Positions 49,275-54,728 of a stretch of 64,000 nt of DNA are shown in pieces. Source of the stretch: Promethearchaeota archaeon (lineage in GTDB: Archaea > Asgardarchaeota > Lokiarchaeia > Sigyniarchaeales > SOKP01); contig JBHLLU010000005.1 of assembly GCA_048938895.1 (NCBI GenBank), forward strand, positions 1-64,000, read 5' to 3'. A model generated the notes under the pieces. The model was not told the origin of the DNA. It did not search any database and was given only the letters and a program-made list of their open reading frames with translations. The number at the start of each line of letters is the position of its first letter. The stretch's first letter is position 1. The translations under genes and the position numbers were made by a program.

Positions 49275-51119
49275 ATGCTAAAAAAAACTAAAGCTTTCAT
49301 AGCTTTCTCAATTTGTGTAGTAATCTTTTTTAATTTCATTTTTCTTCCTAATTATTCTGATTCGAATCAAAGTATAAATGATAATTTTCAATATCCAGAA
49401 AATTCAGCAAATCTGGAAGGTATAGATAATATAATTGTAACAAATGTAGAAAGACTTGCTAATATAAGCGGATATGGAGTAGTAAGCTTTACAGATTATA
49501 TTTCCATTAAAAATCTTAATAGTAATCCAATCACTTCAATGTTTATTGCAATACCGCTAAATTACTCAGAATTATTGATATATTATGAAGCAAAGGGAAG
49601 TGATGCTAACTCTTTACTCACAGAACGTACTCATCTAATAATGAATGGATTTGAAATGATAACAGTCTATTTTGAATCACCTCTTTTACCATATCAAACG
49701 AAAAAAATACTTTTTATACAGCAATTCAAAGATCTCTTGAAATATTATACACTTAACGAGCATCAGTTCATTGATTATAATGGATATGTTTTTCCTCTTT
49801 TACCATATAGATCTGAGAGAAAAATGGATGCCCAATTTCATCTACCGCTAAGAGCACAAAATATTGAAGGAGGATGGGGTTTTGAACAACCTGATCTATA
49901 CTTCGTCAAGTATGATTTAGCCTATATTAAAGACTCTGTTGAGGGACCTTACATTGAGCCTTTCTTGGAAAATTTAGATGAATTTAAGAGAATTACAGTG
50001 TCTTTTTATCAAGATGATGTTACTTTATTAGAATTTGAAGAAATCGATAGACAGATTTTTATATCTCCTTGGGGTGTGATCAAGGTGACGGAAGAGTATA
50101 TCATTACTAACTATGGTGTAACATCGAATCAATACATTTTTTTAAACCTTCCTAAATCCGCAAGAGATGCATATGTTTCTGATGATATTGGTGAAATATT
50201 AGGGATTAGAATTCTTAAAAAAAGTAATCATAAGGAACTAAGAATTAATTTATTAGAAAATCGTGTAAGATTAATACCAAATTCATCATTTCGGTTTAAA
50301 ATAAGATATTATTTGCCTTTTGAGAAACACTATTCATTAAATTGGCTTCAAGAGTCAATTGAAATTGATCTCTATACCTCAACCTTCGAATATGCTGGGA
50401 AACAATTAACTATTAAATTAATTATTGATGGATGTTATAGTGTAGATCATATTACTTCATCTCCTGAATCAGTAAAAAAATCACATGGGAGAATGAGTTT
50501 AATTTTTACATCAGACTCTGTTGCCTCCTTAGAAGCCAAGATTATTCAGTTTACTTTTACGATCGATTTTTTTGATCTACTATTAAATCCCATCATTTAT
50601 ATTTTAATAATTGCCTCAATTGCATCTATTTATGTATTTATAATTAAAACGAGAAAGAAAGAATCTGGTACCCAAATATTAAAAAGAGAATTCATACCTG
50701 TAAACGAAATTCGGGAATTTTGCGCTTTATATGAAGAAAAAAATGCATTAATTTTAGAATTAAGGCAAGCTGAAGAGGATGCAAAAAGAAGGAAAATTGC
50801 AAAAAAGAATTATAAAAGCATTTTAAATAAAAATACAGCGAAAGTTGATGAAATCCAAAAAGAAATCGCACCTTTCAAAAAAATATTAATGGAAACAAGT
50901 GAGACTTTTGAAAATATTGTGAAAAGACTAGACGTACTTGAAGCGGAGAGAATCAGTATTAATGACAGTTTAAACCTATTAGAATCTAGATATAAAAGAG
51001 GTAGATTACCTTCTAGAGCTGCATATATGAAATTATCAGATGATTTCTTGAAAAGAAGGAAAAAAATCGACAGGACCATTGATAGATTTTTACAGCAATT
51101 AAGAAGTTACCTTCTTTGA
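49275..51119 (+). CDS. Ribophorin I (OST1/RPN1)-like oligosaccharyltransferase accessory subunit
   Basis: Signal segment; IDRQIFISPWGVIKVTEEYIITN, LPKSA.DAYVSDDIGEI; TM at about aa 435-457; cytoplasmic coiled coil. Confidence 0.75.
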   Translation: MLKKTKAFIAFSICVVIFFNFIFLPNYSDSNQSINDNFQYPENSANLEGIDNIIVTNVERLANISGYGVVSFTDYISIKNLNSNPITSMFIAIPLNYSELLIYYEAKGSDANSLLTERTHLIMNGFEMITVYFESPLLPYQTKKILFIQQFKDLLKYYTLNEHQFIDYNGYVFPLLPYRSERKMDAQFHLPLRAQNIEGGWGFEQPDLYFVKYDLAYIKDSVEGPYIEPFLENLDEFKRITVSFYQDDVTLLEFEEIDRQIFISPWGVIKVTEEYIITNYGVTSNQYIFLNLPKSARDAYVSDDIGEILGIRILKKSNHKELRINLLENRVRLIPNSSFRFKIRYYLPFEKHYSLNWLQESIEIDLYTSTFEYAGKQLTIKLIIDGCYSVDHITSSPESVKKSHGRMSLIFTSDSVASLEAKIIQFTFTIDFFDLLLNPIIYILIIASIASIYVFIIKTRKKESGTQILKREFIPVNEIREFCALYEEKNALILELRQAEEDAKRRKIAKKNYKSILNKNTAKVDEIQKEIAPFKKILMETSETFENIVKRLDVLEAERISINDSLNLLESRYKRGRLPSRAAYMKLSDDFLKRRKKIDRTIDRFLQQLRSYLL

Positions 51120-51138
51120 ATTTAATTTCTAGATATGT

Positions 51139-51771
51139 GTGAAATTTATGAAACCTTGGTTGTTTGACATTTTAGCATGTCCTATTGATAAACATTTTCC
51201 ATTGAAATTGTACATTTTTTCATTTGAAACCGATTCAAACGAATTCAATTCTTTTTTAGATATTTTGGAAAAGAGAGACCTTGACTTCATCAAAAAAGAG
51301 GAAATTGTAAAAATTTATCAAAAAAATGATATCTTTTTCCTTAAAGATAACATTGTAATTGAAAAAACAGAACTTAAGAAGTATGTCGATCTGATAATTT
51401 CAAGTATTAACGAGTTAGATAATATCTATAATAGAAGTTCTTCAAAGGAAAGCAAGAAATGTTTTGAAATTATTGCCGCGCAAATAAAGCCAAAGATCTC
51501 AAATTTCAGAGATTTTCTTGATCCAAATAAATTAGATAATATACTTCCTGAGTTAAATTTCTTGAATAAATTTAAATTAGATACTGAAATTGATAGGGGT
51601 CTACTCTTCTGTACAAAATGTAACCGATGGTACCCCATAATTGAAACAATTCCCCAAATGCTACCAGATGAATATAGAGATGAGACAAAGGATATCGAAT
51701 TCCTTAAAACCATTAAAAATTTAATTGATGAAGAATTTTTTAATAAAGATTTAAAACCTTTCAATCTTTAA
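51139..51771 (+). CDS. trm112: Trm112-family methyltransferase activator with a large central insertion; start likely ATG 51148
   Basis: MKPWLFDILACPIDK.FPL ... GLLFCTKCNRWYPIIETIPQMLPDE. Confidence 0.85.
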   Translation: MKFMKPWLFDILACPIDKHFPLKLYIFSFETDSNEFNSFLDILEKRDLDFIKKEEIVKIYQKNDIFFLKDNIVIEKTELKKYVDLIISSINELDNIYNRSSSKESKKCFEIIAAQIKPKISNFRDFLDPNKLDNILPELNFLNKFKLDTEIDRGLLFCTKCNRWYPIIETIPQMLPDEYRDETKDIEFLKTIKNLIDEEFFNKDLKPFNL

Positions 51772-51788
51772 AACCTTAATAAAAACAC

Positions 51789-51920
51789 AGCCCGGTAGTG
51801 TAGAATAATACATTCATAATGTATTATGCTTAATGGCCAAGCATTTAGGGCTTTGAACCCTGAGACCACGGTTCGAAAATTTACGAGATTGCTCGTCAAT
51901 AGAAACTCCGTGCCGGGCTA
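51789..51920 (+). tRNA. tRNA-Gln(UUG) with two introns (51804-51833 at position 15/16; 51878-51906 at position 59/60)
   Basis: Removing the two inserts gives a 73-nt cloverleaf: acceptor AGCCCGG/CCGGGCT, D-stem GTGT/GCAT, anticodon arm TAGGG-CTTTGAA-CCCTG, T-arm CACGG-TTCGAAT-CCGTG. Confidence 0.92.
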
Positions 51921-51923
51921 TAC

Positions 51924-52050: not shown

Positions 52051-52380
52051 ATGGCTATCCTAACTAAGTTAAGAAATGATAAGATAAGACGTATTGTCAT
52101 TGTAGCAATTGCCATTGCAATTGTTTCAACAGTGGCGCTAGCGATAATTTTTGCAGTGTTAAACATAAAATTTGTAATTGATGAAGGTGATGATGATGAT
52201 GATTGCAAAATATGAAAACGGACGTTAAATATCAAACCATCTCTAAAAAGAAATGAATCAATAGATAATCAATTAATGAAGTTAAACGAGGAAACTTTAA
52301 TAAATAAAATTTTTACAAAACTGGATGAATCTTGTAAAAAAATGCTAGTTACAAGAGGACAACCCTGTGAAGGTATTTGA
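52051..52380 (+). CDS. Small single-TM protein with CxxU, candidate selenoprotein (54 aa if UGA 52213 is a stop; 109 aa if it is read as Sec)
   Basis: MAILTKLRNDKIRR-IVIVAIAIAIVSTVALAIIFAVL-NIKFVIDEGDDDDD-C-K-I-(TGA); frame stays open to TGA 52378-52380; not in the ORF track. Confidence 0.6.
52325..52360 (+). promoter_or_regulatory. Candidate eukaryote/Loki-type SECIS (kink-turn core) element
   Basis: ATGAA-TCTTGTAA-AAAAATGCTAG-TTACAAGA-GGAC: AUGAN/NGAN core, perfect 8-bp helix, A-rich apical loop. Confidence 0.5.
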
Positions 52381-52450: not shown

Positions 52451-53119
52451 TCAGAAGTAAATTAAAACAATTTGATTTATGAGGAGATATATTGCTAAAA
52501 ACACCAAAATTGCTCCATTCAAAAGCCTTAGTTTAGTGCGATGCTTTATTCGAAAATCATTTATTTTTGATGATTCTAATCCTAACCGAATTAATATTAA
52601 TATTACAATAATTGGTAATAACATTCCTATAATGTATATAAAGATAAAAACATAAAGCAGTGGATTTGCATAAAGATTAGCAAGAATAGATAAGTAAATT
52701 CCCCCAAAACAAGGGATCTTAATTAGAACAAAAATAATTCCAACTAAAAAAGCATAAAATCCAGAATTTTTTTGTATAAAACTATTTAATACTGTTTTTA
52801 CCTTCTCAGGCGTTCCAAAGATTAAGCTTTGTTCTTTTTTACATTCTACTATTTGCCACAATCCCAAAAAGATTAAAATCCCTGCGAAGATAAAACTAAT
52901 AAAAATCAACTCTTCAATTAAAGGCAAAAACAGAATTGAAACTAGAATATAAGCAAGAACCATCCCAGTAATTAATCCTATTGAAATGATAAGAAATTTA
53001 TTTTTCTCTTCTATTAGAACTACAGAGGTTCCAAAAACACTAAGCATTAATAATATACAAGGTGTAATCCCTACGGCTAAACCTGACAAAAAAGTAATTA
53101 GGATATTAACTTCTTCCAT
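52451..53119 (-). CDS. CcdA/DsbD-beta family transmembrane disulfide electron transporter
   Basis: 6 TMs with two redox Cys in GITPCIL and IKIPCFG; YIIGMLLP. Confidence 0.85.
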   Translation of the reverse strand: MEEVNILITFLSGLAVGITPCILLMLSVFGTSVVLIEEKNKFLIISIGLITGMVLAYILVSILFLPLIEELIFISFIFAGILIFLGLWQIVECKKEQSLIFGTPEKVKTVLNSFIQKNSGFYAFLVGIIFVLIKIPCFGGIYLSILANLYANPLLYVFIFIYIIGMLLPIIVILILIRLGLESSKINDFRIKHRTKLRLLNGAILVFLAIYLLINQIVLIYF

Positions 53120-53339: not shown

Positions 53340-54728
53340 TTGTATAAACTTATGAGACTATTATCTAAAATGAATTGGGGATTTGTAGAAATATTATTTC
53401 TAATAGTAATTTTTGTAGTGGGATTACTATCTACTTACTTTCTTCTCCCATATGTTATAAAATTAATGAAAAAGAAAAATTACATAGGATATGATATACA
53501 CAAGAATTCTCGACCTGAAGTGGCTGAATCTGGAGGACTTAGTTTTGTTTTGGGATTTATTATTACTTCCATATTCTTAATGGTATTTTTTATTAATTTT
53601 TTGAGTGAAATTTTGATCTTTGTTTTAACAGTACTATTAGCTGCAATAATTGGATTTATAGATGATCGAATAAAATTAAAATCTCGCTATAAAATAATTC
53701 TTTCTATATTTTCGGGAACAATAATATTTATTGCAAATTCTGTTGGTTTTGTTAAGATATCCTCACCTACAATTCCCATACTAGATCGAACCAGATTGAG
53801 CATTATATATCCTTTTATGATACCCTTACTTGTTGCTATTTTTGGAAATACAGTAAATATGTTAGAAGGATATAACGGAGAAGGTTCAGGAACGTGTTTA
53901 ATTGCTGTTATTTCTCTTCTCATTTGTGCAATAATATGGGATTCTGCTCAGGGAGTGCTTTTTTCAATTCCAGTCATTGCTGTTTTAATCCCTTTCTTTC
54001 TTAAAAATAAATTTCCCGCTCAAGTTTTTCCTGGAGATATAGGAACATTGAGTATGGGAGCAATGATTGCGTGTATTATGTTGTTTGGCTCACTCGAAGT
54101 TGCTGCTTTTTGTGCTCTTCTAATTCATATATTTAATAGTTTTTATGTAATTTATTCTGTAAGAGGTTTTCTTGAAAGTGATAAAATAAGGGAAGGTAAA
54201 GATGATATCATTTTACTAGAAAACGATTTAATCAAAGCATCTGATCAAAAAGATGCGGCATTAACATTGCCTAGATTGATATTAGCAAGAGGACCATTAT
54301 CTGAACCAGAGTTAGTCAATAAATTTTTTATTATATCAATAATTTGTGGTATTTTTGCCATTCTTTCAGTGCTATTTACACAACTGACAAGGGGAATTTT
54401 AAACATCGGTCTTTTTATCATAATTTTTATACTATTTCTGATACCGATTGCATTTTTTTTAATAAAATACCCCAGAATTCGAGGTACTATTGTATTAATG
54501 GTAATTCTTTTAATTGCAGCTATCATATTCTTTCTTTTAGTAGAGCTTATTATAATGCCCTTACCAATTGCAGATATTAGATTAGGTATAATTTCCATCC
54601 CAGTAAATCTAATATTTACTTTGATCATCGGTCTTATTGGGTTGATTGGATGGTATTTTATTACGATTAAGTATTTTTGGTTTCAAATAAATTCTATGAA
54701 AAAAGAAGAAATGAATAAACAAGGTTAA
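53340..54728 (+). CDS. aglH: UDP-GlcNAc:dolichyl-phosphate GlcNAc-1-P transferase (AglH/Alg7, MraY superfamily) with extra C-terminal TMs
   Basis: GYDIHK..RPEVAESGG, IGFIDD, NTVNMLEGYNG, FPAQVFPGDIGT, LTLPRLIL. Confidence 0.85.
   Translation: MYKLMRLLSKMNWGFVEILFLIVIFVVGLLSTYFLLPYVIKLMKKKNYIGYDIHKNSRPEVAESGGLSFVLGFIITSIFLMVFFINFLSEILIFVLTVLLAAIIGFIDDRIKLKSRYKIILSIFSGTIIFIANSVGFVKISSPTIPILDRTRLSIIYPFMIPLLVAIFGNTVNMLEGYNGEGSGTCLIAVISLLICAIIWDSAQGVLFSIPVIAVLIPFFLKNKFPAQVFPGDIGTLSMGAMIACIMLFGSLEVAAFCALLIHIFNSFYVIYSVRGFLESDKIREGKDDIILLENDLIKASDQKDAALTLPRLILARGPLSEPELVNKFFIISIICGIFAILSVLFTQLTRGILNIGLFIIIFILFLIPIAFFLIKYPRIRGTIVLMVILLIAAIIFFLLVELIIMPLPIADIRLGIISIPVNLIFTLIIGLIGLIGWYFITIKYFWFQINSMKKEEMNKQG

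Follow-up and report, generated by a model that had tools for sequence, protein, structure and literature searches.

Known selenoproteins of the Lokiarchaeia (VhuD/FrhD, HdrA, VhuU and Prx-like proteins) are soluble redox enzyme subunits, and their genes carry a selenocysteine (Sec) insertion sequence (SECIS) termed lokiSECIS. As described in the available text of Mariotti et al. 2016 (PMC4989117), this element consists of an AUGA motif, a 9-bp stem, an 11-nucleotide apical loop and then GA or AA; the first five loop nucleotides are mostly A, the last is an ultraconserved G that usually follows an A, and the position, in the elements described so far, is immediately downstream of the stop codon. 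The same text reports no further candidate from a SECIS-based search of Loki contigs. As far as the available text of other surveys goes, Huang et al. 2024 (PMC11227280) used homology to identify seven families of selenoproteins in Asgard archaea, Sun et al. 2021 reported no more than HdrA, Prx and MvhD, and a May 2026 review (PMC13188914) counts 11 archaeal families with no small membrane protein among them. Here we describe an open reading frame (ORF) at 52051-52380 on the forward strand of a 64,000-nucleotide stretch of a Promethearchaeota genome (contig JBHLLU010000005.1, positions 1 to 64,000; hereafter the window). Judged from its sequence and that of its relatives, it is very probably a genuine protein-coding gene for a membrane-anchored selenoprotein of about 109 residues, forming one branch of a family.

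The locus resembles the lokiarchaeal genes just named in its recoding apparatus, with the same signal (AUGA, a 9-position stem, an A-rich loop of 11 nucleotides and GA) and the same Sec machinery, as well as in how closely the SECIS adjoins the ORF end; among the VhuD genes of the window's own genome (G000; other codes, such as G004 or G068, denote relatives), one uses the UGA of AUGA as its stop, as do the copies of the present gene in G009 and G006. In contrast to those soluble enzyme subunits, the product is a small single-pass membrane protein, and its SECIS overlaps the ORF. The original prediction had already set it apart from the known Loki selenoproteins, and it indeed shows no similarity to the Asgard and archaeal families listed in the available text of PMC11227280 and PMC13188914. 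The small proteins matched no model in Pfam or NCBIfam, and the whole protein none in Pfam at E values up to 0.01; when the two halves produced by translation table 11 and the cysteine form from G068 were compared with Pfam at E up to 10, the only returns were chance-level (DUF7248, COX6C, Sigma_reg_N), with no SelK/SelS and no thioredoxin (Trx)-like family. A description of the family was likewise not found in the literature searched by full text; the supplementary tables of PMC4989117 and PMC11227280 might list such ORFs. As far as could be checked, the recoding mechanism is known, whereas the protein family, its membrane-tethered architecture and the overlap between ORF and SECIS are new.

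The reading frame and its probable recoding signal

The features of the locus, all on the + strand, are as follows.

52051-52380 (+): the whole probable selenoprotein ORF, with ATG at 52051, the Sec codon TGA at 52213-52215 and the stop TGA at 52378-52380; 109 residues, Sec at position 55 (U55)
52051-52092 (+): basic N-terminal segment, residues 1-14, with 5 K/R against 1 D/E; predicted cytoplasmic by the positive-inside rule
52093-52161 (+): single transmembrane (TM) helix, residues 15-37, from a hydropathy scan; AlphaFold2 places a helix at 3-39, with a block predicted local distance difference test (pLDDT) score of 82-90 over residues 11-30
52162-52203 (+): post-helix linker including the acidic run DEGDDDDD (52180-52203, residues 44-51); predicted disordered, with pLDDT of about 40 for residues 40-80
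52204-52215 (+): Cys/Sec pair C52-K-I-U55 (TGC AAA ATA TGA), with TGA in 12 of 13 copies of this type and TGC in G068
52216-52324 (+): hydrophilic tail from Sec to the SECIS, 36 codons, open and weakly conserved, with a low-confidence helix at 69-102
52325-52359 (+): lokiSECIS core, with AUGA at 52325-52328, stem 52329-52337 paired with 52349-52357, the 11-nucleotide loop AAAAAUGCUAG at 52338-52348 and GA at 52358-52359
52362-52374 (+): 3' mini-hairpin ACC-CUGUGAA-GGU directly after the core; three pairs, with 94.7% of cells paired and barely varying, which amounts to conservation and not covariation
52315-52380 (+): outer (lower) closing helix, with CAAA 52316-52319 paired with UUUG 52376-52379; 5 contiguous pairs here, 7-10 in most relatives

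Read through its internal UGA, the frame encodes MAILTKLRNDKIRR-IVIVAIAIAIVSTVALAIIFAVL-NIKFVIDEGDDDDD-CKI-U-KRTLNIK...DESCKKMLVTRGQPCEGI-stop, where MAILTKLRNDKIRR is the basic N-terminus, and the in-frame TGA at 52213-52215 is followed by 54 sense codons up to the TGA at 52378-52380. Every detail that the original prediction had read from the letters (the ATG, the basic N-terminus, one TM helix, DEGDDDDD, CKI-UGA and the 54 codons) was reproduced. Translation table 11 splits the locus into a 58-amino acid ORF and a separate 34-amino acid ORF, and permits the first of these to start at TTG 52039; the orthologues and the metagenome protein P0002 start at the position of the ATG. The region has a G+C content of 24-30%. 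Across the stretches between UGA and SECIS in 25 family members, the two off-frames contain 0.097 (82/845) and 0.115 (96/835) stops per codon; because stops thus fall every 9-10 codons out of frame, 54 open codons would, by our own arithmetic, occur by chance with a probability of about 0.003.

A competing account takes the UGA as an ordinary stop, so that the gene would make a 54-residue membrane peptide, in keeping with the 54-58 amino acid ORF that table 11 yields, and the SECIS-like element would be a leftover or serve another role. The structure and conservation of that element speak against it. The element, which the original prediction had not seen, reads ATGA-ATCTTGTAA-AAAAATGCTAG-TTACAAGAG-GA; it starts 109 nucleotides past the UGA, its core overlaps the last 18 codons of the ORF, and the nine positions of its stem form eight standard pairs plus an A.G pair at the base. 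With a loop that starts AAAAA and ends AG, it shows every structural feature of a type I lokiSECIS given in the available text of PMC4989117. A pattern scan of both strands of the 4.65-Mb genome returned 27 matches, nine of them with a loop of 10 or 11 nucleotides ending in AG. Five of these nine lie 4-14 nucleotides past, or overlap, the stops of genes with in-frame TGA, namely VhuD (three times), a multi-Sec HdrA and a Prx-like gene (WUSHC); the remaining four are the window site, a small ORF with a TM helix and a TGA (C102:8674), an ORF with two adjacent TGA codons on C99 and one ambiguous site. A covariance model, R1, was built solely from the SECIS elements of five known genes of G000 (three VhuD, HdrA and PrxL). 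Genome-wide, it scored the window site at 45.2 bits (E 6.8e-6), compared with 54.7-62.8 for its training set, 41.8 for C102, 36.8 for C99 and 21.8 for the next site among the 150 first-look candidates scored out of 4955; over the whole window with filters off, the site again scored 45.2 bits and the second-best 21.8.

Pairing in the stem is conserved across 25 SECIS elements of the family: 93.0% of the cells hold standard pairs, compared with 82.5% after shuffling (none of 500 shuffles reached the observed value), and seven of the nine stem pairs show compensatory changes on both sides (for example G-C 11, A-U 8 and G-U 4). When the partners were slid by 1-3 columns as a control, pairing fell to 30-54%. 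This conservation with compensatory change is hard to reconcile with a leftover beyond an ordinary stop. Further out, each member's own flanks give a mean of 7.5 contiguous pairs in the outer helix, against 5.7 when flanks are swapped (0 of 5000 permutations reached the observed mean), and both this helix and the ACC...GGU mini-hairpin are common to the window SECIS and to the VhuD, HdrA and PrxL elements of G000. Together they constitute an architecture beyond the published core, absent, as far as seen, from the SECIS descriptions in the available text of PMC4989117 and PMC11227280. Rfam at gathering thresholds and ARAGORN found no match in the window, and relaxing Rfam to E values up to 10 near the site brought chance matches alone (the RAGATH-1 hammerhead at 18.7 bits and snoRNA models), with no Rfam SECIS family; Rfam SECIS models likewise failed on Loki SECIS elements according to the text available from PMC4989117.

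The machinery needed to read such a codon, which the original prediction expected, is present in the genome, and this too disfavours a plain stop. A tRNA-Sec (61.1 bits, above the Rfam cut-off) lies on the window's own contig directly beside SepSecS (393.5 bits), and SelB (243.3 bits, above its cut-off) is on the same contig; the genome further holds a PSTK-like gene (151 bits, below the equivalog cut-off of 290.5) and two selD genes (190 and 169 bits), both of which contain a single in-frame TGA. We propose that the UGA at 52213-52215 would be read as Sec by this tRNA-Sec/SelB system, signalled by the type I lokiSECIS.

Orthologues, the probable Sec codon and the wider family

A six-frame search over 60 relatives, followed by a profile search over all 54 genomes of the genus, placed the gene, which we call type A, in 13 of the 54. 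Twelve of these (G000, G004, G025, G018, G005, G030, G026, G061, G064, G009, G006 and G069) keep the TGA, always with a Cys 1-4 residues ahead of it (CKIU, CDIFU, CKRU, CFU, CDLPIU, CGGRU), and at no point is the codon TAA or TAG, contrary to what a plain stop would lead one to expect. The thirteenth, G068, has no TGA; its 124-amino acid ORF reads DDDDGCNC, and the second Cys (TGC) aligns to the Sec column, an exchange that an ordinary stop would not explain either. Exchange between Sec and Cys was seen in two cases only, this one and, among the shorter relatives described below as type B, UPCU in G065 versus UTSC in G021. Downstream of the Sec codon the frame is closed in none of the copies: between it and the SECIS, frame 0 contains no stop in 444 codons from 13 members (the 12 TGA-bearing type-A copies and G034, a long-tailed copy within a type-B neighbourhood), again at odds with termination at the UGA. 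The assignment of the UGA to Sec in the original prediction is thus upheld by the retention of TGA, the open frame beyond it and the TGC of G068, with the lokiSECIS as added support; the run of orthologue codons behaved as that assignment implies.

The distance from UGA to SECIS is 109-118 nucleotides in 17 of 25 members, whereas the end of the ORF varies. It falls at the UGA of the AUGA motif in G009 and G006, at a TAA in the loop in the G005 group and G069, at a loop UAG in G004 (which runs through the SECIS in another frame), at a UGA formed with the 3' GA in G025, 19 nucleotides past the core in the window and much later in G018. In 12 of 14 long-tailed copies (type A, the Cys form of G068 and G034) the stop lies at least 14 nucleotides past the start of the SECIS, G009 and G006 being the exceptions; counting only the TGA-bearing type-A copies, the ORF enters the SECIS by at least 14 nucleotides in 10 of 12 (53 in the window). 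Because G004 reads another frame and the ORF ends vary, conservation of the last 18 or so codons (DESCKKMLVTRGQPC) at the protein level reflects RNA conservation of the SECIS.

If the locus were merely an ORF open by chance, or a pseudogene in decay, within the AT-rich DNA between a tRNA gene and ccdA, it would be short, of low complexity and without a family match, as this ORF is, and its restriction to 13 of the genus's 54 genomes would fit; we nevertheless find this account scarcely credible. Although orthologues are just 21-45% identical to the window protein, they share its start, TM helix, linker, Cys and TGA, and both the reading frame and the SECIS are retained. By the Nei-Gojobori method, applied to 17 non-independent pairs, the ratio of nonsynonymous to synonymous substitution rates (dN/dS) of the N-terminal part is noisy (0.09-1.36) and below 1 in 14 of 17. 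A homologous-protein search with the full-length protein returned two metagenome proteins only, P0002 and P0003, 70% and 64% identical over 98% of the length, a search that did not extend to shorter truncated products. Both show W in place of the Sec codon as well as the closing TGA, and were therefore evidently called under a code in which TGA means Trp. The variants listed for contigs of other samples comprise one replacement, A21S, and synonymous changes at K11, V42 and L65; the TGA is unaffected.

For the part beyond the Sec codon, the original prediction had asked whether the frame is conserved with dN/dS below 1. The frame itself stays open throughout, and the substitution pattern agrees less well: tail dN/dS spans 0.24-1.41, with values under 1 for 12 of the 16 pairs that gave one. 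Of the two signals the open frame is the stronger, and dN/dS lends weak support to constraint on the tail as judged from these sequences. Some members end early, one residue after U in G084 and seven residues after U in the second G000 copy, and because of this the conserved functional core would be the anchor, the linker and the U/C pair.

That second copy, the other small SECIS-linked ORF of G000 (C102:8486-8713), encodes MDSEIKGLRKRKVKK-TM-GDGGGTUGCLTNLF, 54 residues, with its SECIS 23 nucleotides past the stop and just 44 past the UGA. It typifies a shorter layout, type B, with an N-terminal MSE..LRKGKIKK, a TM helix, a Gly-rich linker, U-x(1-3)-C and an amphipathic tail of 7-33 residues, the stop lying 14-38 nucleotides ahead of its own lokiSECIS. 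A type-B profile of 12 sequences, searched in the genomes of the class, matched 70 of 161, comprising 68 of 134 in family f1 (G000 excluded) and one of 27 in other families, a non-member; by genus, the matches fall in g1 (44/53), g28 (18/42), g27 (2/10), g29 (2/7), g18 (1/5) and g19 (1/1). The g19 match, G085, was regarded as spurious, leaving five genera in one family. By our own count, an in-frame TGA is present in 69 of the 75 rows listed. When 16 weak or distant matches were fetched, 12 showed a TM helix, a U near a Cys and a SECIS; in G146, which has a TM helix and a UPC motif, the strict pattern did not find a SECIS. Among 400 genomes of the phylum, TGA-bearing matches are confined to family f1 apart from G040, whose match is unrelated and was discarded as a non-member, and matches outside f1 in long ORFs without TGA were treated as spurious TM matches. 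From these comparisons we take the window gene to belong to the longer type-A branch and type B to be the commoner, shorter core form; because most type-A genomes also hold a type-B copy, type A is an extra paralogue.

In genomes of other families, G249 ('GCCTSCGTSCGESCSESC') and G200 ('CANACGTACSNSC' / CANACGTACSNSCNDAC) encode proteins with a similar N-terminus (an acidic start and a K/R block) and a TM helix, followed by Cys repeats. These two (loci L122 and L123) may be distant Cys-only relatives, a lead that comes from weak N-terminal/TM matches (E 2.9e-6 and 2.4e-4).

Several observations weigh against our reading of the gene. The type-A form has a narrow spread, the 13 genomes of the genus already given; tail dN/dS is 1.0 or above in 4 of 16 pairs, which indicates weak constraint; the SECIS lies inside the ORF, with the stop 53 nucleotides past its start, and so not downstream of the coding sequence as in the elements described so far; the outer helix of the window copy is weak, at 5 contiguous pairs; and the genome-wide R1 search scored 150 of 4955 first-look candidates. 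The spacing between Cys and Sec is not conserved (CxU, CxxU, CxxxU, CxxxxU, UxC, UxxC and UxxxC all occur across members), and G019 ('GVUPGA') has no nearby Cys. In two distant members, G119 and G121, an ordinary TAA occupies the position of the Sec codon and a SECIS is lacking, from which it appears that truncated forms can persist, as an ordinary stop at the UGA would have it. The evidence is all computational: the single RNA run found contained 0.04 of the sampled words, covering 51834-51922 and a 34-nucleotide piece and not the ORF, and is uninformative on expression. Taken with the evidence above, we judge an ordinary stop very improbable, and a Sec-encoding gene of an undescribed family highly likely on the strength of the comparisons among genomes.

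Predicted membrane topology, gene neighbourhood and possible function

A charge scan found 3-8 K/R against 0-3 D/E in the N-terminal flank of the helix in 26 of 26 members, and 0-1 K/R in the 15 residues after it. Because of these 26 charge distributions, the positive-inside rule predicts an N-in/C-out orientation, which agrees with the placement of CxxU outside the membrane in the original prediction. The basic N-terminus would thus be cytoplasmic and followed by one TM helix, with the acidic linker, C-K-I-U and the hydrophilic tail lying outside the cell. An AlphaFold2 model from a nine-row alignment (mean pLDDT 57.3) has a confident TM helix, a disordered stretch at 40-68 that includes the acidic run and CKIU, and a low-confidence helix at 69-102. 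CxxU, named in the original prediction as the commonest redox motif of selenoproteins, is not a fixed motif in this family: among members the spacing between Cys and U varies from 1 to 4 residues, and the Cys may lie on either side of U. Since this spacing varies on a flexible Gly/Asp-rich arm, the site is not a thioredoxin-type box, and a mobile selenylsulfide or a soft-metal site is indicated.

The nearest lead to a partner is the convergent neighbour of the ORF:

52451-53119 (-): gene for a 222-amino acid membrane protein in which two Pro-Cys motifs are conserved, a probable thiol-disulfide electron carrier of the CcdA family, assigned from PF02683 and named homologues

Its match to PF02683 (E 0.025, 14.3 bits) is below the cut-off of 27.1 and aligns protein residues 6-175 with profile positions 5-183 of 219; homologues are named CcdA by NCBI and JGI, two of them carry PF02683, and C21 is invariant and C140 near-invariant. 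At least 6 of the 13 type-A loci have this neighbour beside the small gene. Against a functional tie stand its position on the opposite strand, its absence from the G005, G030 and G026 loci, and the setting of the type-B genes, which lie elsewhere, between a membrane protein of about 345 amino acids and an ARMT1-like phosphatase. That membrane protein, 5' of the type-B genes, had no Pfam match, and a protein atlas gave unnamed Promethearchaeota clusters only. Because ccdA is missing in the G005 group and the type-B neighbourhood is different, the CcdA link is only a lead. A complex prediction for the CcdA of G068 with the Cys-form small protein of the same genome scored 0.00 and gave no answer, neither for nor against binding.

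In the mechanism we propose, the Cys and Sec on the flexible arm would form a reversible selenylsulfide, the arm would act as a membrane-tethered extracytoplasmic redox centre, much as the Gly-Cys-Sec-Gly arm of thioredoxin reductase does, and its reduced state could be maintained through the neighbouring CcdA-type electron carrier. Computed results support the gene itself, its SECIS, its conservation and Sec/Cys exchange, and the Sec machinery of the genome; the topology, the selenylsulfide chemistry and the CcdA link are what we infer. The choice of a redox function over metal binding or something unforeseen is a reasoned guess, in which the two sides are about evenly balanced.

The most serious rival to that mechanism accepts a real selenoprotein and has the Cys/Sec site bind a soft metal or metalloid at the cell surface, for sensing, sequestration or delivery, with the linker and tail as spacers. 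The acidic run immediately precedes C-x-x-U, and the variable spacing and disordered linker would suit a chelating loop equally well; the tail is dispensable in some members, as G084 and the second G000 copy show, and the Cys-only look-alikes of other families (G249 and G200) bear CxxxC repeats. On the other side, no metal-handling genes were seen in the conserved neighbourhoods, which hold Trm112, CcdA and GT4 for type A and the membrane protein and ARMT1-like gene for type B, P0003 has no acidic run, and the tie to the Cys-repeat proteins is through their weak N-terminal/TM matches alone. We regard metal binding as unlikely, though clearly less so than an ordinary stop. Taken as a whole, the reading we favour, that of a gene whose UGA is decoded through a type I lokiSECIS, with a single-pass anchor and membership of the type-A branch, appears likely to us.

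Other features of the locus and genome deserve mention in their own right. In the conserved neighbourhood, at 49275-51771 and 53340-54728, are genes for a membrane protein resembling ribophorin I (PF04597, E 8e-17), for a protein resembling Trm112 (PF03966) and for a glycosyl transferase, GT4 (PF00953). The first and last of these are of the N-glycosylation type, with a eukaryotic flavour, and no link to the small gene was found; the idea that N-x-S/T sequons after the helix might tie it to these neighbours was dropped, the sequons being inconsistent. Directly upstream of the ORF, at 51790-51912 (+), is a tRNA-like gene missed by ARAGORN and Rfam and apparently split by two non-canonical introns, at about 51804-51834 (D-arm) and about 51878-51905 (T-arm). 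Contigs from other samples contain an intron-less tRNA 5' half joined at 51835 and a 3' end resuming after 51877, with a depth peak at 51836-51903; the anticodon loop CUUUGAA, read by eye, suggests tRNA-Gln(UUG). Finally, C99:40422-40956 of G000 (L038/L116) holds an ORF of about 160-170 amino acids with two adjacent TGA codons ('...ITIVVHADUUADVMKERL...') followed by a lokiSECIS (R1 36.8 bits). The protein belongs to no Pfam family, has homologues in 47 of the 53 other genomes of the genus and shows at least two TGA in 59 of the 60 rows listed; from its sequence it probably represents a further family of selenoproteins, the second unreported one here, whose mark would be a Sec-Sec pair.

Relation to other selenoproteins and redox arms

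SelK and SelS are small, single-pass proteins of the eukaryotic ER membrane, mostly disordered outside the helix and rich in Gly or charged residues, with Sec on a flexible C-terminal region; the Sec of SelS pairs with a Cys as a selenylsulfide, and the Sec-bearing tails of both proteins face the cytosol. The present protein is like them in being small and single-pass, with Sec on a flexible region and Gly-rich or charged segments. It differs in showing no sequence match, in its predicted N-in/C-out orientation and in the position of the type-A Sec, which lies 54 residues from the C-terminus, in the middle of the protein. The loose likeness of layout drawn in the original prediction therefore holds for the small size and single TM helix, while sequence similarity is lacking and the predicted topology is opposite.

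The C-terminal arm of mammalian thioredoxin reductase (Gly-Cys-Sec-Gly) likewise has Cys and Sec a few residues apart and flanked by Gly, as in the GGGGU-G/A/P-C of type B; here, by contrast, the arm would sit on a membrane helix, outside any flavoenzyme. Extracytoplasmic proteins that depend on CcdA or DsbD, of the ResA and CcmG type, present an anchored redox pair and are encoded beside a CcdA-family carrier, an arrangement that the proposed pair and its probable CcdA-type neighbour would share. Unlike them, the AlphaFold2 model has no thioredoxin fold, the Cys-Sec spacing is variable, and ccdA is convergent and missing at several loci. In Trx-fold proteins, CxxU and CxxC always keep two residues between the pair and stand where a helix begins; in this family the spacing is 1-4 and the region is predicted to be disordered.

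The boldest extension of these comparisons, which we offer as a long shot, would make the family the first cell-surface, membrane-tethered archaeal selenoproteins: Asgard-specific 'swinging-arm' Cys/Sec peptides, a forerunner or independent twin of the SelK/SelS type, with a SECIS placement intermediate between the bacterial in-ORF and the eukaryotic 3'-untranslated region arrangements. At a more practical level, gene callers truncate such genes at the UGA or translate them under a TGA=Trp code. The UGA-to-SECIS spacings of 44-118 nucleotides, together with the overlaps between ORF and SECIS, form a natural series for the function of a eukaryote-like SECIS in archaea. The archaeal selenoproteome, as given in the available text of the published accounts, is small and consists of soluble redox enzyme subunits, to which the new family would add a membrane-tethered, probably extracellular Cys/Sec arm. 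The SECIS and the conserved UGA were the only route to this family, which lacks Cys-rich enzyme relatives; surveys that rely on homology thus overlook lineage-specific selenoproteins in these archaea, the closest relatives of eukaryotes.

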